A DNA stretch of 64,000 nt from Deinococcus sp. GTDB lineage: Bacteria; Deinococcota; Deinococci; Deinococcales; Deinococcaceae. The DNA is taken from assembly GCA_965261005.1 (NCBI GenBank), contig OZ253375.1, positions 1,920,001-1,984,000 of the forward strand, in the 5' to 3' direction. This document shows, one piece after another, positions 1,576 through 59,857 of the stretch. The notes under the pieces were generated by a model. The model ran no database searches, was not told where the DNA came from, and worked only from the letters and a program-made list of their open reading frames with translations. The position numbers were made by a program, and so were the translations under genes. Each line of letters begins with the position of its first letter. Position 1 is the first letter of the stretch.

Positions 1576-2958
1576 TTAGGTGCCAGGTGCGGTTTTGTCT
1601 TCGCTGTCATCCTCAACGATAACAGCAACCATCGCTTCATACCCATCCAGTAGACCTCTTGCGAAAGTCAGGAGGGTTGGGCGCGGGTAAGGTTACAGAG
1701 GGCGGCGATGAGCTGAACCCGAAGGGCAAAGCGACGCCGCCGATGTCGGTAGACGCCCTTGAGCACCCGAAAGACCTTCATGCGACGGATGACGTGTTCG
1801 ATTCCTTGGCGGGTATAGGCCAGCACCCGGTTTTCTCGACGCTGCTCTTTGGTCAACGGCTTGGACTTGGTCGCCTTATGCGTGGTGATGGCGTGCCCGT
1901 GGCTTCTCCACAAACCCTGATACCCCGCATCCCCGATCAGGGCCGTGTCATGAGGAAACCGTACCCCAGACTGCCGAAACAGCTTGAGATCATGGATGGC
2001 TCCAGCACTCGTCGCCGTGCCCAGGATGTGCTGAGTCACGGTACAGATCAGGACTTGGAACTTCAAGGTGTGCCGCTTCTTCTTGCCGCTGTACCAGCGG
2101 CGCTGCTTTTTTTGGGTCGTTCACACGGCACTTCGGACGCATCGACGGCCACGATGCTGTAGACCGTCTGCGCTTGCTGGAACACGCGCTTTCTAGGCAT
2201 CTGGAACTGCTGGCTGGCGATCAGGGCTTCTTCGACACGTTCCACCGTGCGGTGCACCGTGGTCTCATGGACGCCCCAGTCGTCACCCAGGTGCGCGAAG
2301 GTGCGGTACTCGCGCCAGAATTCCAGTGTCATCAGAAGTTGTTCAGCCACCCTGAGCGCGGCTGGACGACCAGATTTCTTCTTCTGTCCTTCTCGCTCGA
2401 TCAGCACCGCTTCCATCTGGGCGAAGGTTTCGGGATACACCCCGGTGCGTCGGCGGAACTGCTTGCGGTTCATCTTCAGTGTCCGTCTCAGGCGATCTCG
2501 CTCCACCCCTTGAGCTTAACCCACGACTTTCGCAAGAGGTCTATTAACTTATGTCTCCGAAATATAGCCATTGTTTTTGGCGCGTAGTCAAAACCCACTG
2601 TTAGATTTGGTTGAGAAGATAATTTGAAAGAGGATGCCGTAGCGCCGTAATCGGTACGCCAAGGCATATCGAAAATCCAGCCGTCACCTAACGCATCTTG
2701 TATTTTTCCGGCTGTGGTCTTCAAGTCCTCATGTGTCACCGTACAAAACTGATGTTTCCCACCTTCGATTATTATGTCCTCTGGGCAATTTACTACTTTC
2801 AAACCTAAGCTTTGCATCTTCGTCTTGATTTCATCAAATAAAGTGTCAATTGTATAGCTTGCAGCCACTTTCTTATACCCTTTGCTATTAATAGCGAAAC
2901 CAACAATTCCGAGAACAGCAATACTACTTAAGACTATCGAAGTAGTACGAACGCTCAT
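1576..2958 (-). pseudogene. Putative immunity protein paralog 3, split by an IS5-family element
   Basis: The 5' part (2958-2543) shares the MPWRTDYG motif with paralogs 1 and 2; the 3' part (1651-1576) resumes in frame as DGYEAMVAVIVEDDSEDKTAPGT*, matching the paralog C-termini. Confidence 0.85.
1652..2542 (-). mobile_element. IS5-family (ISL2/IS1381-like) insertion sequence, copy 1, 891 bp
   Basis: Terminal inverted repeats AGACCTCTTGCGAAAGTC; two overlapping ORFs (2506-2063, 2066-1668) linked by an A7G slippery site; DDE motifs VDASE and GDAGYQG; same sequence as 49462-50352. Confidence 0.92.
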
Positions 2959-2960
2959 AC

Positions 2961-3095
2961 CTATTTTACCTTCCTACCCGGATGCCACATTTCCCAAATT
3001 CTGAGAAGACGAAGCAGAACGTCATGCAGAACTCTGTCTGATAGTTCGACGCCTTTATCTTTCGACATTTTTTTAGAGGAAGCATTGCAAGCAAG
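2961..3095 (-). pseudogene. Orphan variant of the lipase toxin C-terminal ~45 aa
   Basis: Translates to LACNASSKKMSKDKGVELSDRVLHDVLLRLLRIWEMWHPGRKVK*, homologous to the end of 4229-6253. Confidence 0.8.
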
Positions 3096-3112
3096 TAAAA
3101 GGCGAGAGCCTT

Positions 3113-3595
3113 TCATGTGCCAGGATTTTCATTGGTATCCTCTTCGACGAATACACTAACAGCGCCTTTATACTCTTGAGGGATTTGTTGATCTTTATCC
3201 AAAAACTCTTTCGGAGTGTAATCGAATGATACGCTAAGGCTTGGATCATCCTTTACTTTAAAAATTGCCATAGTTGAACCGTAATCTGTCCTCCAAGGCA
3301 TAGAAAATTCGTACTCATCTCCAAGCGCCTGATGAACCTTGAGGGCGAAGGTTTTTAGGTCGTCTTTAACTGCTCCGCAAAATCGATATTTATAATCTTT
3401 GAATATTGAAGTTTCCGGACATGGAATGATTTCGATCCCTATTTCTTGCTTTGCACCGCTGGAGATTCCCTCAAAAACCGTATTTAACGTGTACACTTTT
3501 TTCACCCCCTTCTCCTTTATGCTTTGCGATTCGACTTCATATACAAAGGCACCTGCTAAAGCGATACCAAGAATCAACAGTACGCTCTTATTCAT
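3113..3595 (-). CDS. Putative immunity protein paralog 2 (N-terminal hydrophobic anchor or signal)
   Basis: 160 aa, low GC; shares CPETSIFKDYKY.FCG and YEFSMPWRTDYG with paralog 1. Confidence 0.7.
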   Translation of the reverse strand: MNKSVLLILGIALAGAFVYEVESQSIKEKGVKKVYTLNTVFEGISSGAKQEIGIEIIPCPETSIFKDYKYRFCGAVKDDLKTFALKVHQALGDEYEFSMPWRTDYGSTMAIFKVKDDPSLSVSFDYTPKEFLDKDQQIPQEYKGAVSVFVEEDTNENPGT

Positions 3596-3726
3596 ACTTT
3601 TTTCCAGGGTGCCATTGCTGCCAAATTTGTTTCAATCTTCGGTTCAGGCGAATACGCAATTCCTGTGGTATTTCCACACCCTTATCCTTCGCCATTTTGT
3701 AGAAGGAGGCTTTGTAAGCGAAGGAG
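3588..3726 (-). pseudogene. Orphan variant of the lipase toxin C-terminal ~45 aa
   Basis: Translates to SFAYKASFYKMAKDKGVEIPQELRIRLNRRLKQIWQQWHPGKKYE*; the toxin end is SFAYKASFYKMAKDKGVEIPARTRDSLNRQLLQIWQRWHPGKKR*. Confidence 0.88.
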
Positions 3727-3749
3727 TAAAACAATGTCTATAAAGCTAT

Positions 3750-4232
3750 TTAGATGCCGGGACTGTCAACAGAGTCTTTTTCTATAAAAACACGAACAGC
3801 CCCGATATACTCGTTTGGTATCTGATTTTTCTCGTCCAAAAACTCCTTCGGAACATAGCTAAAAAGCACATTAATTTGCGGGCTTTTTCTAACCCTGAAA
3901 ACTGCGGTGGTGTCACCGTAATCCGTCCTCCAAGGCATGGAAAATTCGTACTCATCTCCGAGCATCTGATGAACTTTGGCGGCGAAACTCTTCAAGTCGT
4001 CTTTAATCGCTCCGCAAAACTGATATTTATAATCTTTAAATATTGACGTTTCTGGACATGGAACGATTTTTACGCCTACTTCTTGCTGGGTGTCCCTAGA
4101 AATTTCATCAAAAACCGTGTCTAAGGTGTACACTCTCCCGGCTCCTTTATCACCCGTGATCTTGGATTCAATCGCGTACACAGTAATACTCGCTAAAGCA
4201 ATACCAGCAGTCAATACCATACCCTTTCTCAT
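3750..4232 (-). CDS. Putative cognate immunity protein paralog 1
   Basis: ATG overlaps the lipase stop (ATGA coupling); hydrophobic N-terminus; MPWRTDYG motif. Confidence 0.7.
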   Translation of the reverse strand: MRKGMVLTAGIALASITVYAIESKITGDKGAGRVYTLDTVFDEISRDTQQEVGVKIVPCPETSIFKDYKYQFCGAIKDDLKSFAAKVHQMLGDEYEFSMPWRTDYGDTTAVFRVRKSPQINVLFSYVPKEFLDEKNQIPNEYIGAVRVFIEKDSVDSPGI

Positions 4233-6253
4233 CGCTTTTTCCCCGGATGCCAGCGCTGCCAAATTTGAAGTAGCTGACGGTTTAAACTGTCGCGTGTACG
4301 AGCGGGTATTTCGACGCCCTTATCCTTTGCCATTTTGTAGAAGGAAGCTTTATAGGCGAAGGAGGGGATGGGCAGGGCGTTGGCGAAGGGATGATCGAAG
4401 TCTTCGGTATAATCGGGCAGTCCCATCTGAATCGCCAAGCGCTTGGCGTTCTCGGAAAGCGGCAAGTGCGCCGCCTCGCCGCTGTTCAGCCACGCCCGCA
4501 CCTTGTCCAGGTCCTTGGGGTCTTCGATCTGCTTGACCCGGTTCTCGACCTCTTCGAGCAAGAGGTTGTAGGCGACGTTGGCTTGGAAGGTGCCGGCGTA
4601 GAGGTCCTTGGTCATGTCCAGCAGCGCCGCCCAGTCCCGCGCCGTCTCCATGCTCAGCCGGGGATCGAAGTCGCTGTGCTCTTGCGCCTCATAGTTCATC
4701 TGGACTTGGGTGCCGGGGTGTTCGGTGTATTGCCGGTCCTTGACGCCGTACTGAAGGATCGCCTTCTGTTGCGCCGTCAGGTTGCCGGGGTCCATGCTGC
4801 CCAGCCAGGCCGTCAGCGGATAGGCGACGTGCGTTTTGGTGGCGAAGTCCGCCCAGTGTCCCGGCCGCAGCGCCGTGCTGCTGGTGAAGCCCGCGTCGTT
4901 CTTGCCCTTCTCCAAGCGGTCGAAGTACTGAATGATCCCTGGCAAAAAGCCGTCCCCGCCGTTCGGCACGATGTCCCCCCGCACCCGGTAGTGGGTGGCG
5001 CCGATCACGTTGTTCGTAAAGCTGTCCCCCGCGTGTGTCCTGTTGTTCTTGGCGACGCTTTGAACATCCTTTTGGTTGACGCCCGCCGACTCGAAGGTGA
5101 CGACCCGGCTGACGCTCCCCTCGAAGCGGGAGGCCACGATCTGCGCCAGGGCGCCGCCCAAGCTGTGCCCGGAAACCCACAGCTTGCCCGTGGCGCTCAG
5201 CTGGGCGGCGTGTTGGACCCACTGCGCGATCAGCGCTTGGTTCTGGTCGAATTGCGGTAAGCCGATGCCGGCGGCGATGCCGTCTCCCACCAAGGTGTCC
5301 AGCCCGCTCTCAATGGCGGCTTGTACGTCCGCCCCCTGCGCTGTGTTGGGCGGTCCCGCCTGTTGGGCGAGCTTTTTGAGGACGGCGGCCCCGTCCACGT
5401 CAAAGCCGATGCCCTCGGTGCCGCGCAGGGCGAGGATGACCTGGGGGTACTTGGCGTTCAGCGCTTCATGCTTGCCGTCCGGCCGGAACACCCGGAACTG
5501 CAACCCCCACTTGCCGAGCACCAACGGTTCGGCCGTGTACCCGAAGGCCGTCAGCAGCTTGGCGGGGTGGGCGCCCTGCTTGTCGTCGTGGTCGCTGAAC
5601 TCGGCGTCGTTCATGTAGGCCAGCCGGACGGTGAGCTGTTCGATAAAGGCGTCATAGGTCAGCCGCTCCCCGTCTATGGGCAGCGGCATGTTGATGGCGC
5701 GCATCAGGTGAACGGCCTTCGCGGTGCCGAGCAGGTCGGTGAGCTTGACGAAGAAGGATTCCTGCTTGTTGTCGTGGCGACCGACGTAGAGCCGGGAGAG
5801 GTCTTTCAGCTTTTCTTCGGGGAGGGCGAGCAGGAGTTGTTTCAGCTTGGCCGGGTTGATCGCCGGCTTGCCGAGCACAAGGGACATGCCGTCGAGGGAA
5901 AAGGCCAGCTCGTACAGCTCTTGTGAAAACTGTTCGGGGCCACCAGACAGGTCCCTGTGGGGATCGAAGTGGAGGAACTTGGTTTGGTTCGCCCGCTCTG
6001 CTGGGGTCAGTGGGTAGGCGTCCAGGCTGGCGAGGGCGTCTTGGTAGCGCGCCTTATAGGCCGTGACCGTCTCCGGTTGGTTCTCCTCGGCGTGCGTCAG
6101 CCTGTCGCGCGCCCGCTTGAGCCGGCTTTTGGCTTCTGCCCGGTCGGAGGCGGCTGTTCTCGGCTGGGGCGGGGCTGCAAAGGCGAGCGGGCGCTCCTGT
6201 TGGGGCCGCTGCTGACCTTGCTGCTGGCGCCGGGACAGGTCGTAGTCGTACAT
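4229..6253 (-). CDS. Class-3-lipase-like alpha/beta hydrolase, putative toxin effector
   Basis: ILALRGTE, nucleophile elbow VSGHSLGGALAQ, VVTFES and GDIVP motifs; Q/P-rich N-terminus; no signal peptide. Confidence 0.8.
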   Translation of the reverse strand: MYDYDLSRRQQQGQQRPQQERPLAFAAPPQPRTAASDRAEAKSRLKRARDRLTHAEENQPETVTAYKARYQDALASLDAYPLTPAERANQTKFLHFDPHRDLSGGPEQFSQELYELAFSLDGMSLVLGKPAINPAKLKQLLLALPEEKLKDLSRLYVGRHDNKQESFFVKLTDLLGTAKAVHLMRAINMPLPIDGERLTYDAFIEQLTVRLAYMNDAEFSDHDDKQGAHPAKLLTAFGYTAEPLVLGKWGLQFRVFRPDGKHEALNAKYPQVILALRGTEGIGFDVDGAAVLKKLAQQAGPPNTAQGADVQAAIESGLDTLVGDGIAAGIGLPQFDQNQALIAQWVQHAAQLSATGKLWVSGHSLGGALAQIVASRFEGSVSRVVTFESAGVNQKDVQSVAKNNRTHAGDSFTNNVIGATHYRVRGDIVPNGGDGFLPGIIQYFDRLEKGKNDAGFTSSTALRPGHWADFATKTHVAYPLTAWLGSMDPGNLTAQQKAILQYGVKDRQYTEHPGTQVQMNYEAQEHSDFDPRLSMETARDWAALLDMTKDLYAGTFQANVAYNLLLEEVENRVKQIEDPKDLDKVRAWLNSGEAAHLPLSENAKRLAIQMGLPDYTEDFDHPFANALPIPSFAYKASFYKMAKDKGVEIPARTRDSLNRQLLQIWQRWHPGKKR

Positions 6254-6439: not shown

Positions 6440-9400
6440 ATGACCCTTCAAGCGTTGGAGGCTTACGGCCGTGAGGCAAACGGTATCTATCGCTCAGGCT
6501 CAGGCGTCGCGGAAACGTCCTACTACCCGCCGCTGTCCAACCTGCTGAACGCCGTCGGCGCCACCCTCAAGCCCAAGGTGCGCGCGATCATCAACATCGC
6601 CAACCGGGGTGCCGGCATTCCAGACGGCGGCCTGTTCACCCCCGACCAGTTCCAGCGCGGCGAGGGCGAGCCGCAACGCGGCACGCTTCCCTCGCGCGGC
6701 GCCATCGAGGTCAAGGGGACGGGCAAAGAGGTGCGCGCCATCGTTGCCTCTCAGCAGGTCAAGGATTACCTGGGGTTGTACGGCTCCGTTCTGGTCACGA
6801 ACCTGCGCGCCTTTGCCTTGGTGGTGCGGGGCAACGACGGCGGGCCGCGCGTGCTGGAGGAGTACCAGTTGGCCGACTCGGAGGCGGCCTTTTGGCAGGC
6901 CGTCCAGAACCCCCGCGCCCTTGCCGAGCGTCACGCCGAGCCGTTCGGGGAGTACCTGCGCCGGGTGATGCTCCACAAGGCCGAACTCAGCAGCCCGCAA
7001 GAGGTGGCCTGGTTCCTGGCCTCCTACGCCCGTGACGCCCGCTTCCGCCTCACCCACAGCCGCCTGGACGCGCTGGAAAAGGTGCGCGCCGCGCTGAGCG
7101 AAGCCCTGGACCTCAAATTTGAGGGGGACAAGGGCGAGGCGTTCTTCCGCTCCACGCTGGTGCAGACCCTCTTTTACGGGCTGTTTTCGGCCTGGGTGCT
7201 GCATCATCAGGACGGGCGAACGGAGCGCTTCGAGTGGAAGAGCGCCGCTTGGGAGTTGCACTTGCCGCTGATGCAACGCCTCTTTTCCGAACTCGCCAAC
7301 CCGAGCGCCCAGCGCGGCCTCACGCTCTCCGAGGTGCTGGACTGGGCGACGGACACGCTGAACCGCGTGCGAACGGACGAGTTCTTCAAGAAGTTCGAGG
7401 CCGAGCGCGCCGTTCAGTATTTTTACGAGCCGTTTCTGGAAGCCTACGACCCGGACTTGCGGCGCGAGTTCGGCGTGTGGTACACCCCGCCCGAAATCGT
7501 GGAATACATGGTGGAACGGGTGGACCGCGTACTGCGCGAAGAACTGGCCTTGCCGCTGGGATTGGCCGATCCGGGCGTGGTGGTGCTGGACCCCTGTACC
7601 GGCACCGGCTCCTACCTGGCCGAAGTGGTGCGCCGCATTCACCGCACCATGCGCGAGGCCGGCACGCTGGACGCCCTGAGCGGGGACGACTTGAAGCAAG
7701 CCGTGACCTCGCGCCTGTTTGGCTTCGAGCTGATGCCCGCCCCCTACGTGGTCGCCCACCTGCAACTGGGCCTGTTGCTGTCGCGCCTGGGCAGCCCCTT
7801 GGCCGCAAACGAGCGCGCGGGCGTGTACCTGACCAATTCGCTGACCGACTGGGAACCGCACCCCGGCGAGGGTCAGCAGCGGTTGGGTTTTGCCGAACTG
7901 CAAGACGAACACGACGCGGCCGTGAGCATCAAGCGCGACGAACGCATTCTGGTGATCCTGGGCAACCCGCCCTACAACGCCTTCGCGGGCGTGGCCGCCA
8001 AGGAAGAACAGGGGTTTGTGGACGCCTACAAAGCGGGGCTGAACACGACCTGGGGCATCAAGAAGTTCAACCTCGACGATTTGTACGTGCGCTTCTTCCG
8101 CCTGGCCGAGCGGCGCATCACCAAAACCGGGCGCGGCGTGGTGGCGTACATCAGCAACGCCTCGTATCTGAGCGACCCGTCTTTTGTGACCATGCGGCAA
8201 CGGTTCTTGGGCGAATTTGACGCCCTGTGGTTCGACAACCTGAACGGCGACAGCCGCGAAACCGGCAAGCTCACCCCGCAAGGGTTGCCCGACCCCAGCG
8301 TGTTCTCGACGGAATGGAACAAGGCCGGCATTCGCGTGGGCACGGCCGTGGGGCTGATGGTGCGCCGGGCCGGGCGCGCCGAGGTGCCAACCGTCCACTA
8401 CCGTGAGTTTTGGGGCGTGGCGAAGCGGGCCGAACTGCTGGGCAGCTTGGAAACGGGAAGCGCGACTGCATACGCCCCCGCCCAACCCGTCCCGGCCAAC
8501 CGCTACAGCTTCCGCCCGGAAGAGGTCGGGAGCGAGTACAGGGAGTGGGCCAAGCTGACCGAACTGTGCGCCGAGCCGCCGATGAATGGCCTGATGGAAA
8601 AGCGCGGTGGGGCGCTGATGGATTATGACCGGGGCGAGCTGGAACGCCGCATGAAGTTGTATTACGACCGGGGCACGTCCTGGGAAACGCTGGCCGCGTT
8701 GAACACGGGCCTGACGGAAGAGGCGGCGCGTTTTGCGCCGAAGCAAGCCCGCGCGAAGGTACAAGCGGCGGAAGCTTTCGACGCGGGCCGTCTGCTTCGT
8801 TATGTGGTGAGGCCGTTTGATACCCGCTGGGCGTACTACAGTGGCGTTCGCCCGCTCTGGAATGAACCTAGGCCGAAGCTTTGGGCGCAGATGTGGCCGG
8901 GGAATTCGTTTCTTATCAGCCGTCCGGCTGGTGCCACAAGTGAAGAAGGTGCGCCATTCTTCTTCACCTCCCGGCTTGGCGACAACGACTTTTTACGCGG
9001 TCATGCTTATTACTTCCCCCTTCAACTCAAAATCCAGCCGCCCGCCGTTTCACTCTTCAATCCCTCGGCGCCCCAAGAAGCCCGCATCGTCGCCAACCTC
9101 TCCGGGCGTGCCCGCGCCTACCTGCAAGAACTGGGCGCCCCCGATCCCGACGAGAGCGCCGAGACGGCCAAGCTGATCTGGCTTCACGCCCTCGCCATCG
9201 GCTTTTCCCCGGCCTACCTGGGCGAACATGCGGACGGCATCAAGGGGGACTGGCCGCGCGTGCCGCTGCCCGCTTCGCTGGACACGCTGCGAGCTTCCGC
9301 CGCCCTGGGCGAGCGCGTCGCGGCCCTGCTCGACGGCGAGGCGCCTTCTCTACCGCCGGAAGTGGCGGGTGTGGCCGTGATCTCGCGGGTGGGCGGCGGT

Positions 9401-10090: not shown

Positions 10091-10430
10091 GCGCGAGCGC
10101 GCGGCGGCGGGTGAGGCGTGGCAAGATCAGGGCTTTGTCTTCGCCTCTGAGTTGGGCGGCCAGACGGACCCTCGCACCCTGTACGGTTGGTTTAGGGCCA
10201 TTGTGGATAAGGCCGGCGTGCCCACCATCCGCTTTCACGATCTCAGGCACACCGCCGCCTCGCTCATGGTCCGGCAAGGCATCAGCGCCAAGACGGTAAG
10301 CGACCGGCTGGGCCATAAGGACGTGGCCTTTACCCTGCGCGTCTACGCCCATCTCTACGATGACCAAAGAGAAGAGGCGGCCTTTGACCTGAGCGACCTC
10401 TACCCCCTCGCGGCGGGCGGGCCAAACTAG
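10090..10430 (+). pseudogene. C-terminal remnant of a phage/ICE tyrosine integrase
   Basis: AGEAWQDQGFVF...RFHDLRHTAAS...LGHKD...TLRVYAH; N-terminal two-thirds missing; lies next to the tRNA 3' end. Confidence 0.88.
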
Positions 10431-10534: not shown

Positions 10535-10610
<76 letters not shown>

Positions 10611-19209: not shown

Positions 19210-20664
19210 TCAGTTGCTGCTGCCGGTGTCGCGCACCTTGACCGTGATGATCAGGGTCAGGGTGGCGTTCGGCGCCAAGCTGTCGGCGGCGTCCACGGCG
19301 CCGCTGGCGTTGCTGTCCAGGCCCACGTACACGAAGGGGCCGGAGGTGTCGGCGGTGCTGGTGGCGAGGCCGCTCGGGGCGCTGGCGTTCCAGCTCGCCT
19401 TGTCGAGGCTGTAAAGGACCGTGCCGGCGCTGGCGGCGCCCGAGAGCTTGGCGAACACGGTGTTCACCGGCACGTAGTCCTTGAGGGCGGGGAACTTCAG
19501 GGCGGCCGTGCCGGTGTTCTTGACGGTCACGGTGTAGCGCAGGTACTCGCCGGGTTTGGCGCCCGTGGCGCCGGCGGTGGGGGCGGCGCAGTTCAGGTCG
19601 AGGTGGCAGTTCTCCACGTCCTTGGTGACGGCGGCGGCGCCCCTCACGACCGTCACGCTGTCAGTGGCCGTTTGCGCGTTGCCGGCGCCAATCACGTACT
19701 CGTCGGTGGTGTTGCTGGTGCCCGTGAAGTACACCTTCAGGGCGTCCGTGGCCGCGTCGCCGGCGTTCTTGCCGGAGACGGCGCTGTAGGTCGCCGTGAC
19801 GGTCACGCCGCTGCCGGCCGCGATGGCGCCCCCGCTCAGGTAGCTTTGCAAGGCCGCCGTCAGGGTGGCCGCGCCCGTGCCGCTCCTGGTCCCGTCGCCG
19901 ACGACGTAGCTCACGCCCGCCAGCACGCCGGCGGGGTCGCTCAGGGTGCCCGAGCCGGCCAAGTCGCCGCTGGCAATCGGGGTGTTGCCGGTGTTGGTGA
20001 GGGTGTGCAGGCCGTCCACGGCGCCGGGCGAGGTGACCGTGAGGCTGCGGTCGGGGCTGAAGGTGAGGTTGTGAATGCTGCGGGTGCTGACCTCGTGGAC
20101 GTTGTTGCCGTCCGTCACGGGGTTGGCCGCCGTGCTGCCCGAGGAGGTGGCGGTGGGGTTGACGTAGTAAGCCTGGGCGCCGCCCGCGTTCGCCGGCACC
20201 GCGAACACCGCGATCAGGTTGGCGCTGCCGTCGGCGGGCAGGGCCACCTTGTTGCCCGTGACGGCGGTGCGGTTGCCCGCGCCGTCCACCGTGTAGTAGG
20301 TGACGCCCACGGGGGCGCCCGCGCCGTCGTCGGTCGTGAGGGTGTAGGTGTCGGGGCCGTTGCCGGCGTTGGTGAGGGTGTAATGCAGCTCGGCGTTTTG
20401 GCCGGGGGTGCCGCTCACGACCTCGCCGGGGGTGGCGCGGCTGCCGTCGGCGCCGAGCTGCACGGCGTAGACCTGCGTGACGGTCACGTTGACCTTGTTG
20501 GAGTCCTGGGCCTGGGTGGTGCCGGCGTCGTCGGTGTACTCGAAGGTGCCGGTGTTGGTGATGGTGCTGTTCGCCGGGGCGCCGGCGGCCAAGGCGGCGC
20601 CGGCGAGGGCAAGGAGCGAGGTGAGCAGGGCGGTTTTGAGCTTGTTCGTCTTGAGCTTGGTCAT
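19210..20664 (-). CDS. Secreted DUF11-like beta-sandwich protein, putative filament subunit 2
   Basis: Signal peptide; AGAPANSTITNTGTFEY N-terminus; C-terminal AKPGEYLRYTVTVKN...LKDYVPVNT domain. Confidence 0.72.
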   Translation of the reverse strand: MTKLKTNKLKTALLTSLLALAGAALAAGAPANSTITNTGTFEYTDDAGTTQAQDSNKVNVTVTQVYAVQLGADGSRATPGEVVSGTPGQNAELHYTLTNAGNGPDTYTLTTDDGAGAPVGVTYYTVDGAGNRTAVTGNKVALPADGSANLIAVFAVPANAGGAQAYYVNPTATSSGSTAANPVTDGNNVHEVSTRSIHNLTFSPDRSLTVTSPGAVDGLHTLTNTGNTPIASGDLAGSGTLSDPAGVLAGVSYVVGDGTRSGTGAATLTAALQSYLSGGAIAAGSGVTVTATYSAVSGKNAGDAATDALKVYFTGTSNTTDEYVIGAGNAQTATDSVTVVRGAAAVTKDVENCHLDLNCAAPTAGATGAKPGEYLRYTVTVKNTGTAALKFPALKDYVPVNTVFAKLSGAASAGTVLYSLDKASWNASAPSGLATSTADTSGPFVYVGLDSNASGAVDAADSLAPNATLTLIITVKVRDTGSSN

Positions 20665-20681
20665 GGCGGTCCTTGGGGCGC

Positions 20682-22238
20682 TCAGTTGACGGTCTGGCCG
20701 TCGGCGACGGGGGCGGCGGGCGCGGCGGCGGCGTCGCGCACCTTGACCTTGATGCGCACCAGAATCTGACTGCCGCCGGGCACGCTGTCGGCGGCCGTGA
20801 TGGTGTTGTCGTTGTTGGTGTCCACGCCCACGTACAAGACGGTCGTGCCGGCCGTAAAGGCGCCCAGGGTCGTCGGGTCGGTCTTCCAGGTCGTGCCGTC
20901 GGTGCTGTACAGCACGGTGCCGGTGAAGCCGGTGACGCTCGCGCCAACCGAGTACATGACCGTGTTGGCGGGCAGGGTGTCGCGCAGCTTGACGGCCAGC
21001 AGGTTGCCGGTGCCGGTGTTGTTGGCCTTGAGGTAGTACACGACGTAGTCGCCGGGCTTGGCGTTCACGTCGGTCTGCACCGCGCTGGCCGAGTTGGGGC
21101 AGCTCGCGGGAACCGTCGCGCCGGAGGTGCCGCAGAGGGCTTGCAGCTTCACGAAGCTCGCCACGCCGCGCTGCACGGTGGTCACGTCGGTGATGGTGTT
21201 GCCGCCGTTCGAGGTCGCGGCGTTGTTCTTGACCGTCGTGCTGGTGGTGACGTTCAGCAGCGCCGTCAACACGTCGGTGTTCTTGTCGCCGTCCTGCCGG
21301 CCGGTGGGCGCGGTGACGCTGACCGCCAGGGTGACGACCTCGCCGCTCGCGAGGCTGTTGGCGCCCAGCGCGTTGCTGATGGCGGTCTGCGGGTTGGCAG
21401 CTGCGGCGCCGGTGGTCCCCTTGTAGGTGGCGGTGTAGGAGACGGTAAAAGCGCCCGCAGCCAAGGCGGCGCCGGTCTTGTCGGCGTTGGTGACGGCCTG
21501 GGTGACGTTCAGCTGCGAGGTCGAGACGGGCGCGTTGCCGGTGTTGGTCAGCGTCTCGGTGTAGGTCTTGGTGCCGGTCACGGTGACAAAACCCGTGTTG
21601 CTGGCCGCCAAGCTCAGGTCATAGATCGTGTTGACGGCGATGCGGCCGTAGTTGTTGTTGTCAGTCGGGCCGGCGGGGGCGGCGGTCGTGCCCGTGGCGA
21701 CCGACTTCGCCTGCGGGTTGATGTCGTAGGTGGTGCCGGCCGCCTGGTTCACGGGAATCGGGTACACCGCAAAAAAGGTCTTGCTGGCGTCGGCGGCGAG
21801 GTTGGTGTAGCCGGTGATCAGGGTGTCGCCGGCGTCGTAGGAACCGTTGCCGTTGGTGTCGTCGTAGAACTTGACGTTGGCGGCGGTGACGTTGGCGCTC
21901 TGCGCGAACACGCTCAGCACGTCCGAGTCGCTGCCGTTGCCGGTGTTGGTCAGGCTGTAGGTCAGAACGCCGTATCTGGTGACCGCGCCGGTGCTGGGGT
22001 CCACGGTGTAGGTCTGACCGGGGGTGCCCGCCGTGCCGTCGGGCGTCACCGAGACGCCGTAGACCTGCTGCACCTGGATGTTAACGGTGTTGGAGGTGGC
22101 CGTCTGGGGGCCAGCCGCCGTGTCGTCGGTGCTGTAGTCGAGGGAGCCGGTGTTGGAGATGGTGCTGCCGGCGGGGGCGCCCACCGCGAGGGCGGCGCCG
22201 GAGAGGGCGAGCAGGCCGGTGATCCAAAAACGCTTCAT
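20682..22238 (-). CDS. Secreted DUF11-like beta-sandwich protein, putative filament subunit 1
   Basis: Paralog of 19210-20664; VGAPAGSTISNTGSLDY N-terminus; AKPGDYVVYYLKANN...LRDTLPANT. Confidence 0.72.
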   Translation of the reverse strand: MKRFWITGLLALSGAALAVGAPAGSTISNTGSLDYSTDDTAAGPQTATSNTVNIQVQQVYGVSVTPDGTAGTPGQTYTVDPSTGAVTRYGVLTYSLTNTGNGSDSDVLSVFAQSANVTAANVKFYDDTNGNGSYDAGDTLITGYTNLAADASKTFFAVYPIPVNQAAGTTYDINPQAKSVATGTTAAPAGPTDNNNYGRIAVNTIYDLSLAASNTGFVTVTGTKTYTETLTNTGNAPVSTSQLNVTQAVTNADKTGAALAAGAFTVSYTATYKGTTGAAAANPQTAISNALGANSLASGEVVTLAVSVTAPTGRQDGDKNTDVLTALLNVTTSTTVKNNAATSNGGNTITDVTTVQRGVASFVKLQALCGTSGATVPASCPNSASAVQTDVNAKPGDYVVYYLKANNTGTGNLLAVKLRDTLPANTVMYSVGASVTGFTGTVLYSTDGTTWKTDPTTLGAFTAGTTVLYVGVDTNNDNTITAADSVPGGSQILVRIKVKVRDAAAAPAAPVADGQTVN

Positions 22239-22731: not shown

Positions 22732-22784
22732 GTGGCCTCCAGAGAGAAAACAAGCCGGCAGGGCCGGTCCTGAACAGGGACGGT

Positions 22785-22862
22785 CAACGCCGGTCGCACC
22801 ACTCGCTCCACACGCCGCCTTGGTGCCCGCATTGGCCTGACGCGCTTCAACGCCTCGTTGTC
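22785..22862 (-). promoter_or_regulatory. c-di-GMP-II riboswitch
   Basis: Minus strand reads CAACGAGGCGTTGAAG...GCGGGCACC...GGAGCGAGTGGTGCGACCGGCGTTG; hallmark UGAA, GGGCAC/GUGC pseudoknot, GGAG.GAGU and ACCG; P1 CAACG/CGTTG. Confidence 0.82.
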
Positions 22863-22975
22863 TGGACCCGGCCACCACCGCTTCAGCCGGTCTTACAAAA
22901 GCTAAATAAAGTCTTCATACAAACTTCTTACAAAGCTCTGCGACTGAGAACACGCGGCGCTACACTGAGGGCGGC

Positions 22976-23734
22976 ATGACGGCACGGACGGCTCTCCCCG
23001 GCGCGGCCGGGACGTGCATTGTGGTCACCGGCGACCCGCTCGCGGCGGCCACAGCGTCGCCGGGCGCCTTCGTGGCGTGCGAGGCCCCGCACGCGGTCGC
23101 GCCCGGTCAGCGCGCGCTGGCCTACCTGAATGGCCCCGTGAGCGTGAGCGTCACGCGCGATTTCGAGGGCTTCCAGGTGTACGGCGAGGCCGTCGCCCCC
23201 ACCCGCTACCAACCGCGTGAGGTGGCGCGCGCCGTCAGCCACGACCCCGAACCTTGGGAAGCGACCTTCATGCGCGCTCAGCGCTTGGCGGCGCAGCTCA
23301 CGCGCTGGGTGGACGGCGAACTCACGCTGGAGGAGCGGGCGCGCGATCTGGGCGCCCTGGCCCGCTGGCGCCGGGGGCAGGCGCCGCCCGTGGCCGTGAC
23401 GGTGGGCGGCATTGAGCTGTCGTGGTGTCCCCAATTGGCCTGCTGGGCCTGCGTGGATTTGGACACCGGCGAGGTGATCCGCCTGACCGGCGAGGCCCGC
23501 ACGGTCTATGATCTCGCGCTGGCGGGGGCGGGGGCGCTGAGCCTGGCCGGTCAGGCGTGGGCCTACAGCCTGCACGACGGCCGCACCCCCGTCGCGGTGT
23601 GCGCGGAGGGCGGCGGCTACAAGGCGCGCCGGGCGCCCGCCCCCGCACCGGGCGAGATCGTCGCGTACCACCTGGGCGCGCAGCTTTCGAAGGACAGGCG
23701 CCCCAAGGCGACGAAATTCATACGCGCGCCGTGA
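22976..23734 (+). CDS. Hypothetical protein; 3' end possibly altered by the duplicated hydrolase fragment
   Basis: GC3-rich ORF with TACACT -10 element just upstream (leaderless-type). Confidence 0.55.
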   Translation: MTARTALPGAAGTCIVVTGDPLAAATASPGAFVACEAPHAVAPGQRALAYLNGPVSVSVTRDFEGFQVYGEAVAPTRYQPREVARAVSHDPEPWEATFMRAQRLAAQLTRWVDGELTLEERARDLGALARWRRGQAPPVAVTVGGIELSWCPQLACWACVDLDTGEVIRLTGEARTVYDLALAGAGALSLAGQAWAYSLHDGRTPVAVCAEGGGYKARRAPAPAPGEIVAYHLGAQLSKDRRPKATKFIRAP

Positions 23735-23934
23735 AGCGGCTGAACGGCCGCCCACTGCTGATGGTGAATGGCCGGCACGACCCGGTGATCCGCCCCGAGC
23801 AGGCCCAGCGGCTCTTCGACGCGGCGGGGGAACCGAGGGAGCTGCGCTGGTGGGACGCCGGCCACGCCCTGCCCCCGGCGGCCGTGGACGAGGCGGCGGC
23901 CTGGCTGGCGGCCCGCCTCGGCGGCGTCCGGTGA
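23723..23934 (+). pseudogene. 3' fragment of an alpha/beta hydrolase; 199-bp inverted duplicate of 45583-45781
   Basis: RAVKRLNGRPLLMVNGRHD...WWDAGH...AARLG is the same in both copies. Confidence 0.9.
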
Positions 23935-23940
23935 TTGGAT

Positions 23941-24001
23941 TTGACTTCCGCTGCATACCGCGCTATCTTGAATCTATCAGCGGCCGAAAGGCCGCTTTTT
24001 T
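23941..24001 (+). repeat. 61-bp promoter/terminator unit R1
   Basis: TTGACT-17-TATCTT...AGCGGCC-GAAA-GGCCGCTTTTT. Confidence 0.9.
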
Positions 24002-24820: not shown

Positions 24821-24881
24821 TTGACTTCCGCTGTATACCGCGCTACACTTTAGAAATCAGCGGCCGAAATGGGCCGCTTTT
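24821..24881 (+). repeat. 61-bp promoter/terminator unit R2
   Basis: TTGACT-17-TACACT-TTAGAAATCAGCGGCC...GGCCGCTTTT. Confidence 0.9.
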
Positions 24882-24902: not shown

Positions 24903-25490
24903 CTACTCGAAGCCGCGCTCCAGAAACCTCTGCACGTTGGCGGGACTGGGAGCGCCCAGGAACTCGGCCAGGGTCTCTAGCGGGACGCCGCGCTCGTGAA
25001 GATTCTTGGCGCACGACCAGCGCAAGTCGGCGACGGTGAACTCGGTGCCGGCCAGCTCGCGCGTTTCCCGGCTGACCTTGCGGACCACGTGGTTCACCTG
25101 TTCCGGCGTGATGGGCGCCTGTTCGCCGGGGCGGCGGGGCAGCAGCGGGTCGCCGGGCTGGCGCGGGGCGTTGCGGTCGTGGCGCAGGTACGCTTTCAGC
25201 GCCCGCGCGAGGTCGGGGTGCAAGTCCACCTCGTCCCACCCGTCTGCCGTGCCCTGGCGCAGCACCCGCAGGGTTTCTCCCGGCAAATCGAGGTCGCCGG
25301 CTCTCAGGGCGCTCACCTGCCGGGGGCGCAACCCCTGAAGGCCCAGCAAGCCGATCACCAACCCGTCGCGCCGTGGGCCGCAGGCGTGCATAATCTCCAG
25401 AATTTGCGGCTCTTGCAGCCGGTTCCGTTGGGATGGATTGGGCTGGACCGACTTGGGCTGGACCGAGTTGGGTTGGGCCGGGTTCGGCAT
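24903..25490 (-). CDS. Stand-alone tyrosine-recombinase catalytic-domain homolog with a degenerate active site
   Basis: AGGAGG RBS; box I GLRPRQVSALRAGDLD; box II VADLRWS...LGAPS..NVQRF, where H-x-x-R, LGH and Tyr are expected. Confidence 0.8.
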   Translation of the reverse strand: MPNPAQPNSVQPKSVQPNPSQRNRLQEPQILEIMHACGPRRDGLVIGLLGLQGLRPRQVSALRAGDLDLPGETLRVLRQGTADGWDEVDLHPDLARALKAYLRHDRNAPRQPGDPLLPRRPGEQAPITPEQVNHVVRKVSRETRELAGTEFTVADLRWSCAKNLHERGVPLETLAEFLGAPSPANVQRFLERGFE

Positions 25491-25549
25491 GGGGCCTCCT
25501 GTTGGCCTCCAGTCTGCCATCCCTGAGAACTCGCGTCCAACGGATACGT

Positions 25550-25610
25550 TTGACTTTCCGTGCATACCGCGCTACACTTTAGAAATCAGCGGCCACTTGG
25601 GCCGCTTTTT
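25550..25610 (+). repeat. 61-bp promoter/terminator unit R3
   Basis: TTGACT-17-TACACT-TTAGAAATCAGCGGCCACTTGGGCCGCTTTTT. Confidence 0.9.
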
Positions 25611-44661: not shown

Positions 44662-44820
44662 ATACGGATTTCGGAAACTCGGTCAACGAAGTTGACGGAC
44701 TTTCCAGTGGAGCGGAGAGGAAAAGGATACGGGTTTCGCGGTTTGGAGCAACATCGTGGCGGCCGTCTTGCCGAGCCTTGGCGCTGTTAAGGGTGTTGAG
44801 GAAATAAGCGGAATCCGTGT
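44662..44820 (-). repeat. Full copy of the SRE/SNR-like intergenic repeat
   Basis: ATACGGATTTCG...CGGAATCCGTGT ends; internal GTCAAC-GAA-GTTGAC hairpin. Confidence 0.8.
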
Positions 44821-45486: not shown

Positions 45487-45564
45487 GCAAAACCCGTATC
45501 TTGTTCCCATCCGCTCCGCTGGAAACTCAGTCAACGAAGTTGACTGAGTTTCCAAAATCCGTAT
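45487..45564 (+). repeat. Partial SRE/SNR-like repeat containing an empty IS110 target
   Basis: AAAACCCGTATCTTGTTCCCATCCGCTCCGCT...AATCCGTAT. Confidence 0.8.
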
Positions 45565-46379
45565 CAGCCCTGCCGAATGTTCCCGAGGCGGGCCGCCAGC
45601 CAGGCCGCCGCCTCGTCCACGGCCGCCGGGGGCAGGGCGTGGCCGGCGTCCCACCAGCGCAGCTCCCTCGGTTCCCCCGCCGCGTCGAAGAGCCGCTGGG
45701 CCTGCTCGGGGCGGATCACCGGGTCGTGCCGGCCATTCACCATCAGCAGTGGGCGGCCGTTCAGCCGCTTCACGGCGCGCGGCGGGTCCACCACCGCTCT
45801 CGCCACCCGCGTCAGCGGCGAGTCGGGCAGGTCGCCCCCGGCCGTCAGGACCACCGGCCCGAGGTCCGGCTCGCTGGCCGCCAGCATCACCGCCAAAAAA
45901 GACCCCAGGGAATAGCCCACCACGCCCACGCGCGCCGGGTCCAGCTCGGGCCGCCCCCGCAGCAAGCGCACGCCCAGGGCCGCCTCACGCAGCGCCAGGC
46001 GCCACAGCCGCACGACCTCCAGCGGGTTGCGGGTGTTCTGAAGGTCCAGCGGGTTGCCGCGCGAGCCGTGCATAGGGAGGTCAATGGCGAGGGACGCCAC
46101 GCCGCGCTTGAGCAGGGCGCGGCCCACCGAGTCCGCCATCACCTCTTTGCGGTTGGAAAAGCCGTGCAGCAGCAGCGCGGCCGGCACAGGATCAGAGGGC
46201 ACGGGACCGGAGGCGTCCGGCAATTGAAGCAGGGCGGGCACGGATAGGCTCTCGGCAGAAAAACTCAGGGCGAGCTGCCGGCCGCCGGGAACAGGCTCCT
46301 CGTGGTGGACGGTCTGGGCGACGCTGGGTACCTGAACAGGGTAAACCGGGCAGAGATAGGCAAATGAAAAAGCGGCCAC
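45564..46379 (-). CDS. Alpha/beta hydrolase (start uncertain)
   Basis: LLHGF, GYSLG, GRHD, AGH catalytic triad. Confidence 0.85.
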   Translation of the reverse strand: MAAFSFAYLCPVYPVQVPSVAQTVHHEEPVPGGRQLALSFSAESLSVPALLQLPDASGPVPSDPVPAALLLHGFSNRKEVMADSVGRALLKRGVASLAIDLPMHGSRGNPLDLQNTRNPLEVVRLWRLALREAALGVRLLRGRPELDPARVGVVGYSLGSFLAVMLAASEPDLGPVVLTAGGDLPDSPLTRVARAVVDPPRAVKRLNGRPLLMVNGRHDPVIRPEQAQRLFDAAGEPRELRWWDAGHALPPAAVDEAAAWLAARLGNIRQG

Positions 46380-46427
46380 TTGGGCCGCTGATTTCTAAAC
46401 GTTAGCACGGTATGCACGGAAAGTCAA
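46367..46427 (-). repeat. 61-bp promoter/terminator unit R4
   Basis: TTGACT-17-TAACGT-TTAGAAATCAGCGGCCCAAGTGGCCGCTTTTT. Confidence 0.9.
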
Positions 46428-47980: not shown

Positions 47981-48041
47981 AAAAAGCGGCCTGAGTGGCC
48001 GCTGATTTCTAAAGGATAGCGCGGTATGCAGCGGAAGTCAA
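47981..48041 (-). repeat. 61-bp promoter/terminator unit R5
   Basis: TTGACT-17-TATCCT-TTAGAAATCAGCGGCCACTCAGGCCGCTTTTT. Confidence 0.9.
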
Positions 48042-49400: not shown

Positions 49401-51926
49401 TTAATCGCCAAAAATCGCTGTTTCAAGTTCTTTAAATACGCACATGCCTGGCGTAATCAATAGACCTCTTGCGAAAGTCGTGGGTTAAGCTCAAGGGGTG
49501 GAGCGAGATCGCCTGAGACGGACACTGAAGATGAACCGCAAGCAGTTCCGCCGACGCACCGGGGTGTATCCCGAAACCTTCGCCCAGATGGAAGCGGTGC
49601 TGATCGAGCGAGAAGGACAGAAGAAGAAATCTGGTCGTCCAGCCGCGCTCAGGGTGGCTGAACAACTTCTGATGACACTGGAATTCTGGCGCGAGTACCG
49701 CACCTTCGCGCACCTGGGTGACGACTGGGGCGTCCATGAGACCACGGTGCACCGCACGGTGGAACGTGTCGAAGAAGCCCTGATCGCCAGCCAGCAGTTC
49801 CAGATGCCTAGAAAGCGCGTGTTCCAGCAAGCGCAGACGGTCTACAGCATCGTGGCCGTCGATGCGTCCGAAGTGCCGTGTGAACGACCCAAAAAAAGCA
49901 GCGCCGCTGGTACAGCGGCAAGAAGAAGCGGCACACCTTGAAGTTCCAAGTCCTGATCTGTACCGTGACTCAGCACATCCTGGGCACGGCGACGAGTGCT
50001 GGAGCCATCCATGATCTCAAGCTGTTTCGGCAGTCTGGGGTACGGTTTCCTCATGACACGGCCCTGATCGGGGATGCGGGGTATCAGGGTTTGTGGAGAA
50101 GCCACGGGCACGCCATCACCACGCATAAGGCGACCAAGTCCAAGCCGTTGACCAAAGAGCAGCGTCGAGAAAACCGGGTGCTGGCCTATACCCGCCAAGG
50201 AATCGAACACGTCATCCGTCGCATGAAGGTCTTTCGGGTGCTCAAGGGCGTCTACCGACATCGGCGGCGTCGCTTTGCCCTTCGGGTTCAGCTCATCGCC
50301 GCCCTCTGTAACCTTACCCGCGCCCAACCCTCCTGACTTTCGCAAGAGGTCTAATGGAGCTAAGGTAAACTCGCAAAATGCTTCTTTAGTATTACCTGCT
50401 TGCTTTAATTTGAGTTCGTTTTTTACATGTACAAATAGTGAACCGGATATTGACTTTACATCGTCATCAGTCTTACCTTCTAACGTAATTTTCTGTAGCA
50501 ACTCACTTTTCTTTTGTAAAAACCCATTTACACATTCTATTCTTCCGGAAGTCACGCACAGTTTCTCTATTACTTCATCGTCCCATAGATAATTCTCAAT
50601 GTCACGACGTCCAAGTACTCTACTATCTTGTTTCTTCAAATGCTCGACTTCTATTGGGCTTCTATCATCTAAATCGTATAGACTGAAGGTTTTTATTGAA
50701 TCAAGAATTTGATTCAATGCCATAGTTAATTTTATAGAGTCTGTCTCTACCTGGTTGTTCCCACCTAAAGAGATAAAAGCCACATCTGGATATGTTTCTC
50801 CAAAAATTATCCTATATATTTTAGCATCGAATTCCATGTTTTTCCCAGTCGGTTTAGATATAGGTGCGCCTTCACAAAACACTATTTGGGAGGGTGCTAC
50901 GAGTTCAGCAAGATCATCCAATGCTACTGCGAAGGTTTTTTTCCAAAACTGCTTATTTATCCTTTCCGGCTTCAGAATTACCTGAGAATCGAAATCTTTG
51001 TCTCCAAAATCTAAAAAAACAACCTTTTCAGGAAACTCTTTATATAATATTAACGCCTCGCGCATCATACCAATTGAGTGAGTAGCTATCCACAGTTGGC
51101 AGTTTTCGGGAACTAATTTATACAATTCTCGTAATAACGCAGCTTGAATTCGTGTACTCATATGAGTTTCCGGCTCGTCTACACAGTATACTGTGTTATT
51201 GTAGAAATCTCGTTTTATAACAAAGTCCAATATTAAATCAAATGCTGCTTTCTCGCCTGCTGACAAATTGATGTATTTATACTCAACACTCATACCTTTT
51301 TTGAATAAAAAGGTTCCATCTGAAAATGGATTTCCAAGACTTTCTAAAGTCAAATCCTCAAAAACGTTTCGCATTGACTCTCTTATAATAGATAGCTGCC
51401 TTTCTCTAATCTCAAATTTAGTCATTGAATCGTTATTCGTGTTGTACAACTCTCTTACGGCCTCGCCTACCATTCTCTTATAGTTTCCAGATACCTTACT
51501 CTCATTATTTATTATCAAACTCGGATTTTTTCTTTCGTCAAAAGCACTTTCTACAGGACCAATATTACTAAGAGAGAACTGAGCTTCATTTCTATAAGCT
51601 GTACGTACATAGAATAATTTTAAAGCTTCTTCACTATCGTCATACACATTTGGAGATTCATCGTGAAATTTGAATGTAATCTTGTTAAACTGCTCTTGAT
51701 ATGAACGTGGTAGATTGAAACTACCTACCTTAGCGTGATAATCAGCGAGAAAGCTTCCCGTTCTCATTGCTCTTTGCCAAAAGTTAAATCCTTCAAACAG
51801 TGAAGATTTACCGCTTCCGTTGGGGCCTACTAAGACAACTAACTTTGTTTCTACTGGTATATCTGTAATGGTCAAATCCGTAAATCTTTTGAAATCTAAC
51901 ATCCTAATTTCTTGTACTCTTGCCAT
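49401..51926 (-). pseudogene. Low-GC ABC/AAA ATPase plus TOPRIM-like protein (OLD-like, putative defence), interrupted near the C-terminus by IS5 copy 2
   Basis: GPNGSGKS, LSAGEK, VDEPETH, IATHS, VFCEG, DLDD; native end LITPGMCVFKELETAIFGD* at 49461-49401. Confidence 0.75.
49462..50352 (+). mobile_element. IS5-family insertion sequence, copy 2, 891 bp
   Basis: Same TIRs as copy 1; AAT target duplication; A7G at 49891-49898. Confidence 0.92.
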
Positions 51927-51976
51927 TTTTACTTCCTTCTGGGGTGAGTTTAGTCATGCTCCTCAAATTCCAATTC

Positions 51977-59857
<7,881 letters not shown>

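Follow-up and report, generated by a model that had tools for sequence, protein, structure and literature searches.

A predicted non-catalytic, stand-alone tyrosine-recombinase domain conserved in a small Deinococcus-like lineage

An open reading frame at nt 24903-25490 (minus strand) of the window, that is, the whole 64-kb stretch of Deinococcus DNA analysed here, encoded a protein of 195 aa that is, on balance, probably a domesticated, non-catalytic recombinase domain, kept by selection in one small Deinococcus-like lineage and still a site-specific DNA binder. Such a protein would sit on DNA non-covalently, contacting it through its retained arginines, a conserved helix (residues 129-142) and a basic N-terminal linker, and could have a regulatory or architectural role at a specific site that has been conserved in its hosts. 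The promoter-plus-terminator units neighbouring the gene, proposed as its ligand in the first-pass annotation of this DNA, are probably not that target.

The open frame (P0001), taken from the list of ORFs and characterized with Pfam, an alignment to XerA, AlphaFold2 (AF2) and Foldseek, was intact as described previously, with an ATG start codon at nt 25488-25490, a TAG stop codon at nt 24903-24905 and a strong ribosome binding site, AGGAGG, read from the sequence at nt 25495-25500, 4 nt before the ATG, all on the minus strand. A longer frame of 220 aa starting at nt 25565 was considered and rejected, as it lacked a comparable ribosome binding site and the homologues start even later. The intergenic DNA upstream of the gene comprises only 160 nt, and a search of the gene's own strand yielded no promoter-like site for it. 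The protein matched the Pfam family PF00589 (Phage_integrase) with an E value of 4.5e-14 (53 bits, cut-off 27.1) over residues 24-189, corresponding to profile positions 2-165 of 172; with a score above the curated cut-off and a catalytic-domain fold, it belongs to the PF00589 superfamily. The AF2 model, computed with the family alignment as input, had a mean pLDDT of 85.2 and a pTM of 0.79 and showed the usual order of helices and the beta-hairpin. When the model was compared with the PDB by Foldseek, the best match was XerA (5hxy; E value 8.6e-8, TMq 0.68), followed by IntI (the integron integrase), Tn1549 Int, XerD, Cre, XerH and lambda Int, with a Foldseek probability of 1.00 to XerA, IntI, XerD and Cre. 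The predicted fold, that of a tyrosine-recombinase catalytic domain, is not in doubt. The best curated-family matches were Xer equivalogs of NCBIfam, all far below their cut-offs (XerA 51.7 bits versus 220, XerC 27 versus 335, XerD 22.6 versus 330, and XerS 25.7 versus 267); PHROGs matches were to generic integrase families only, and a PADLOC scan gave no defence-family match. Since the Pfam match begins at residue 24, the N-terminus holds no core-binding domain, only a short Q-P-rich repeat (QPNSV/QPKSV/QPNPS, residues 6-20, codons at nt 25431-25475, minus strand), in agreement with the earlier description. This repeat, read from the translation, was present only in this genome in the family alignment and had a pLDDT of about 50 in the AF2 model, and is probably disordered.

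Active-site columns were read from three alignments: a pairwise one with XerA (4a8e), one that included active relatives, and an HMM alignment of 160 proteins. The residues listed in the first-pass annotation, namely GLRP and the box II Arg retained but ADLR, LGA and QRF in place of the other active-site motifs, were all borne out by alignment. R55, the box I Arg in G53-L54-R55-P56 (codon at nt 25326-25328), was invariant in the family; A154-D155-L156-R157 (nt 25020-25031) occupied the place of HxxR, with the His replaced by Ala in 11/11 members and the Arg kept; A180 of L178-G179-A180 (nt 24951-24953) was at the position of the second His, which is still His in 7/11 members; and F189 of Q187-R188-F189 (nt 24924-24926), as also seen from its codon, was at the position of the nucleophilic Tyr and was Phe in 11/11 members. 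All these codons lie on the minus strand. Two further losses were found beyond those first described: the alignments gave no counterpart of the beta-hairpin Lys, and the C-terminal helix, which docks on the neighbouring protomer in active enzymes, was absent, the protein ending 6 residues past F189 where aligned active relatives run 15 or more further. Hence, only R55 and R157 were left of the six active-site residues (Arg-Lys-His-Arg-His/Trp-Tyr), and the core-binding domain that forms a clamp with the catalytic domain was missing as well. Among 148 relatives outside the family, the first Arg was R in 144, the first His was H in 109, the second Arg was R in 144, and the second His was H in 139; the Tyr column held Y in 91, with 48 sequences unaligned there. 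Judged by its residues, the 195-aa protein is not an active tyrosine recombinase and would be unable to catalyse strand exchange. Replacement of Tyr by Phe is the classical way to abolish cleavage by recombinases while preserving binding.

A word-indexed search identified 11 homologues of 109-189 aa sharing 55% to 86% identity, two of which were named by source as from Deinococcus peraridilitoris and D. pimensis; P0002 and P0003 were at 83-86%. The segment FTVADLRW, with Ala for the first His, and the C-terminal RFLERGF[D/E], with Phe for Tyr, were common to all 10 other full-length members; further stretches that were invariant or nearly so in the family were ITPEQVNHVVRKVSRE, YxRxDRNAPR, and GLQGLRPRQ. 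The first of these forms the helix of residues 129-142 (codons at nt 25065-25106, minus strand), nearly invariant in the family alignment, and aligns with the helix preceding HxxR in recombinases. If the losses were simple decay, close homologues might be expected to keep the Tyr and the His; they do not, Ala and Phe being present in all full-length members. Of the three changes whose conservation was in question, those of the first His and the Tyr have thus proved to be family-wide, while that of the second His has not: the LGH-to-LGA change, as read from the alignment, is one of this gene's sub-branch only. When 1.84 billion representatives were searched exhaustively with the profile, two family representatives scored below 1e-30; the next match was an ordinary full-length recombinase at 1.5e-15. 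This gap gives the family a sharp boundary, and no member that was longer or fused was seen among these representatives.

The losses could also be read as those of a decaying integrase remnant without present function, in which case the catalytic residues and both flanking domains would simply have gone; a further integrase fragment (nt 10116-10361) lies beside a tRNA gene in the same window, a 199-bp perfect inverted duplicate speaks for recent local rearrangement, and the gene is absent from the sister genome G116. This reading is nevertheless very improbable. Open frames were intact at full length in every family copy readable end to end, the same substitutions recurred in 11/11 members, the invariant blocks persisted in spite of the overall divergence, and the strong ribosome binding site was kept both in this genome (G000) and in a related one (G114). 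Moreover, estimates by the method of Nei and Gojobori for three copies (G000, G114 and one metagenome) gave a dN of about 0.33, a dS of 1.1-1.3 and a dN/dS of 0.25-0.30, a ratio that comes from few, distant pairs with dS near saturation and is therefore an overestimate, if anything. Two DNA runs were from the same organism, with contigs breaking at units, and offered no variation useful for selection tests. In a third genome (G115, a D. pimensis-like draft), the gene appeared split into two pieces about 2 kb apart, as if by an insertion; this was rejected, as both junctions are N runs with ends overlapping by about 30 nt, and the split is a scaffolding artefact. The N runs (locus L023, nt 6593-6688 and 8449-8548; G115:C41) enclose an unrelated 1.8-kb piece with an acyltransferase-like gene. 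Taken together, the sequence comparisons support the view that the losses are not simple decay and that the substitutions and new motifs are held by purifying selection.

A profile search of 125 Deinococcaceae genomes (E value ≤ 1e-10) matched four: G000, G114, G115, and one with a weak match to an ordinary integrase frame of 528 aa. The family was thus present in three of the four genomes of one Deinococcus-like genus, including this one, in addition to a few metagenome sequences, and is known from these three species genomes and metagenome sequences only; the 111 genomes of the main genus contained no family member, only one weak match to an ordinary integrase. In G116, the fourth genome of the small genus, truA was present and no trace of the gene was seen beside it. 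No relatives were detected on plasmids or phages at an E value of 1e-8. The gene is a chromosomal singleton whose neighbours change: genes for a DUF1264 protein and a family-5 solute-binding protein (SBP_bac_5) in G000, and a Macro-domain gene and truA in G114; G115 and two metagenome contigs seem, by eye, to have a common upstream gene of unknown family. The truA gene, which adjoins it in G114, is 4.6 kb away in G000, and dnaA is located at 44 kb in G000 (G000:C1:1989355-1989840, just past the end of the window) and at 65 kb in G114 (G114:C1:1939377-1939862). As cumulative GC skew gave too weak a signal to locate the origin, dnaA was used instead. The origin-proximal position in both genomes is most simply explained by conserved regional synteny, and the proximity of truA and dnaA makes the gene look as if it had been passed down vertically within a region near the origin that rearranges slowly.

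An origin of the gene from a genomic island was rejected, the GC content of its region (0.67) being ordinary for the window. Elsewhere in the window, nt 2000-5000 and 50000-52000 had a low GC content (0.36-0.57 versus about 0.68), and in the former a repeat of about 630 bp occurred three times in tandem. The integrase fragment at nt 10116-10361 (plus strand) was C-terminal, covering profile positions 89-170 within a frame of 124 aa, and the tRNA gene beside it (nt 10538-10610, minus strand) is placed as at an old island integration site. A c-di-GMP-II riboswitch (nt 22779-22866, minus strand; 50.7 bits, cut-off 40) heads a minus-strand run of large repetitive genes without Pfam match (nt 19210-22238), which look like genes for secreted proteins. 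The 199-bp inverted duplicate, 100% identical at nt 23723-23921 (plus strand) and 45583-45781 (minus strand), copies the 3′-end of an alpha/beta-hydrolase gene (nt 45567-46379, minus strand), abuts one of the units described below (R1) and brackets about 21.7 kb including the dead recombinase gene; it points to a recent rearrangement or gene conversion. A near-perfect palindrome of 34 nt, GGAAACTC.GTCAACGAAGTTGAC.GAGTTTCCA, occurred in two copies (nt 44673-44706 and 45521-45554) that were 91% identical and 848 nt apart, one of them just past the 3′-end of the hydrolase gene.

The units consist of 61 bp, with TTGACT, a 17-nt spacer, TAnnnT, about 7 nt, ATCAG, a GC hairpin and a T-run in succession; 11 full copies were present in the genome. 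The five in the window were R1 (nt 23941-24001), R2 (nt 24821-24881) and R3 (nt 25550-25610) on the plus strand and two further ones (nt 46367-46427 and 47981-48041) on the minus strand. R2, with TTGACT-17-TACACT and the terminator hairpin, lies 22 nt beyond the stop codon of the gene, and R3 lies 60 nt upstream of its start, pointing away from it. This geometry had been noted before and taken for a feedback layout, in which R2 would fire antisense to the gene; the geometry stands, but a terminator follows directly after each promoter, so that R2 need not give antisense RNA. The RNA of a unit would be only about 25-30 nt long. No Rfam family matched the unit at gathering thresholds, and text searches of the literature retrieved no relevant account of its sequence.

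A covariance model built from 16 copies detected the unit in 124 of the 125 Deinococcaceae genomes, including 111/111 of the main genus, with 1-31 matches each; copies were also seen at loci L006-L008, L026, L027, and L028-L057. In an alignment of 34 copies from five other genomes, conservation extended to both promoter hexamers, to the spacer TGCATACCGCGC and to ATCA; the hairpin covaried, with 92% of cells paired versus 69% in shuffles and both sides changing in 5/7 pairs, although fitting the alignment to the covariance model biases it towards the structure. The inverted arms TGACTTCC/AGAAATCA, 24 nt apart in the unit and suggested previously as a ligand, were not conserved in copies from other genomes, nor was the stretch that separates the -10 element from ATCA and includes one of the two arms. 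No cognate recombination site, with inverted arms around a crossover region of 6-8 bp, was identified in the sequences inspected.

That the dead domain binds the spacer or the arms of the units and sets their firing or read-through, in the manner of phage Q-type factors and with R2 and R3 as feedback on its own gene, draws on several observations: the gene has a unit on either side and another at a distance of 0.9 kb, 5/11 of the genome's copies fall within the window, and the spacer is so unusually conserved that some protein may well bind it. This reading is improbable. The unit is nearly universal and the gene rare, being found in three of four genomes of one genus and virtually absent from the 111 genomes of the main one, and therefore the gene cannot be the unit's obligate partner; G116, with as many as 31 unit matches, lacks the gene. 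Searched with filters off, the 16 kb around the gene in G114 and G115 and two metagenome contigs (L024 and L025) contained no full unit, so that the expected co-occurrence of gene and unit failed at all four other loci. Furthermore, the spacer is identical in genomes with and without the gene, and local clusters of units, with some copies about 150 nt apart, also occur in genomes that lack it. The gene might instead be a lineage-specific add-on, binding the promoter spacer of the units in its own hosts and tuning termination or read-through; this is distinctly improbable, and if true, it would make the protein the first bacterial transcription factor derived from a stand-alone tyrosine-recombinase catalytic domain. 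R2 and R3 are probably mere neighbours of the gene; the way they flank it is most readily explained as a chance local outcome in a rearranged region rich in units, and the unit has its own, Deinococcaceae-wide biology.

For the favoured reading, a domesticated domain that binds a site other than the units, the sequence offers several indications. Thirteen positions hold Lys or Arg in 45% or more of the relatives; the family has retained 11 of these, ten without variation, and has lost only the two in the hairpin. The helix preceding HxxR, with which the helix of residues 129-142 aligns, enters the major groove in Cre-type complexes, and its near-invariance is as expected for recognition of one common site by all members. 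The retained arginines, which hold the scissile phosphate in active enzymes, the basic positions and this helix make DNA binding plausible. Across the 11 members, the domain carries a net charge of -3 to +5, whereas 136 ordinary relatives have a median of +8 and only 15% of them are at or below +3, a reduction that weakens the case for strong DNA affinity; the pI of the whole protein ranges from 6.0 to 10.4 across the family. Lacking a core-binding domain, the protein cannot close around DNA in the usual clamp. Inspection by eye of the upstream regions of four loci revealed no common motif.

In the main rival reading, the protein partners or modulates a host tyrosine recombinase, of Xer type or an integrase, without itself being catalytic, occupying a half-site or docking on the enzyme and thereby blocking or directing recombination. 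The best curated matches, XerA, XerC, XerS and XerD, however far below their cut-offs, are compatible with this, as are the at least three full-length recombinase genes in the host and the reduced net charge, which suits a protein partner as well as DNA. The C-terminal region contacts neighbouring protomers in recombinases, and the tail RFLERGF[D/E] is invariant, which fits the DNA-binding reading equally. Against such a role, no recombinase gene adjoins the dead gene at any locus seen, the genome contains no close paralogue, and the C-terminal helix normally used for protomer docking is missing; a partner role is regarded as unlikely, less so than the other alternatives considered here.

The domesticated, DNA-binding reading can be set beside several known systems. 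FimB and FimE are active invertases of about 200 aa that have hardly any N-terminal domain and act on defined inverted-repeat sites; the 195-aa protein is similar in size and in its missing N-terminal domain but is predicted to be inert. With XerA (4a8e and 5hxy), its nearest solved relative, it shares the fold, both arginines, the helix before HxxR and 11/13 basic positions, and differs in having no Tyr, first His, hairpin Lys, core-binding domain or C-terminal helix. The structure of Ndc10 is said to have been reported by Perriches and Singleton in 2012. Ndc10/Cbf2, Gcr1, and DUF3504 proteins are described as Crypton-derived, conserved and functional DNA- or chromatin-binding modules that have lost the catalytic Tyr (Kojima & Jurka 2011, PMC3212892). 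These are eukaryotic and multi-domain and have lost the second Arg, whereas the present protein is bacterial and stand-alone and keeps both. TnsF of Tn6022-like Tn7 transposons, according to Faure et al. 2023 (PMC10293859), uses an inactivated tyrosine-recombinase domain as a DNA target selector; it measures about 500 aa, combines N-terminal zinc fingers with tandem core-binding-like domains, and is carried in a transposon with TnsABC/TniQ. The present protein resembles it in being bacterial and in having kept an inactivated tyrosine-recombinase domain, but consists of the catalytic domain only, with no zinc-finger N-terminus or tandem core-binding-like domains, and is chromosomal, with no Tn7-type or other transposon genes among the neighbours scanned. 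TnsF, Ndc10, and DUF3504 are thus precedents for dead recombinase domains, and none of them is encoded by a bacterial chromosome as a catalytic domain on its own. Literature searches retrieved no published family of dead, stand-alone recombinase domains in Deinococcus.

These findings uncouple the gene from the units, which are far more widespread and still unexplained in Deinococcaceae. They also indicate that the database names given to this family, 'site-specific integrase' and 'XerD', are misleading, as its members are predicted to be incapable of strand exchange. A free-standing version, reduced to the catalytic domain and apparently kept by selection in bacterial chromosomes, would show in compact, natural form how an enzyme can become a binding module, and the dead domain could provide a minimal scaffold for studying DNA recognition by recombinases without the chemistry.
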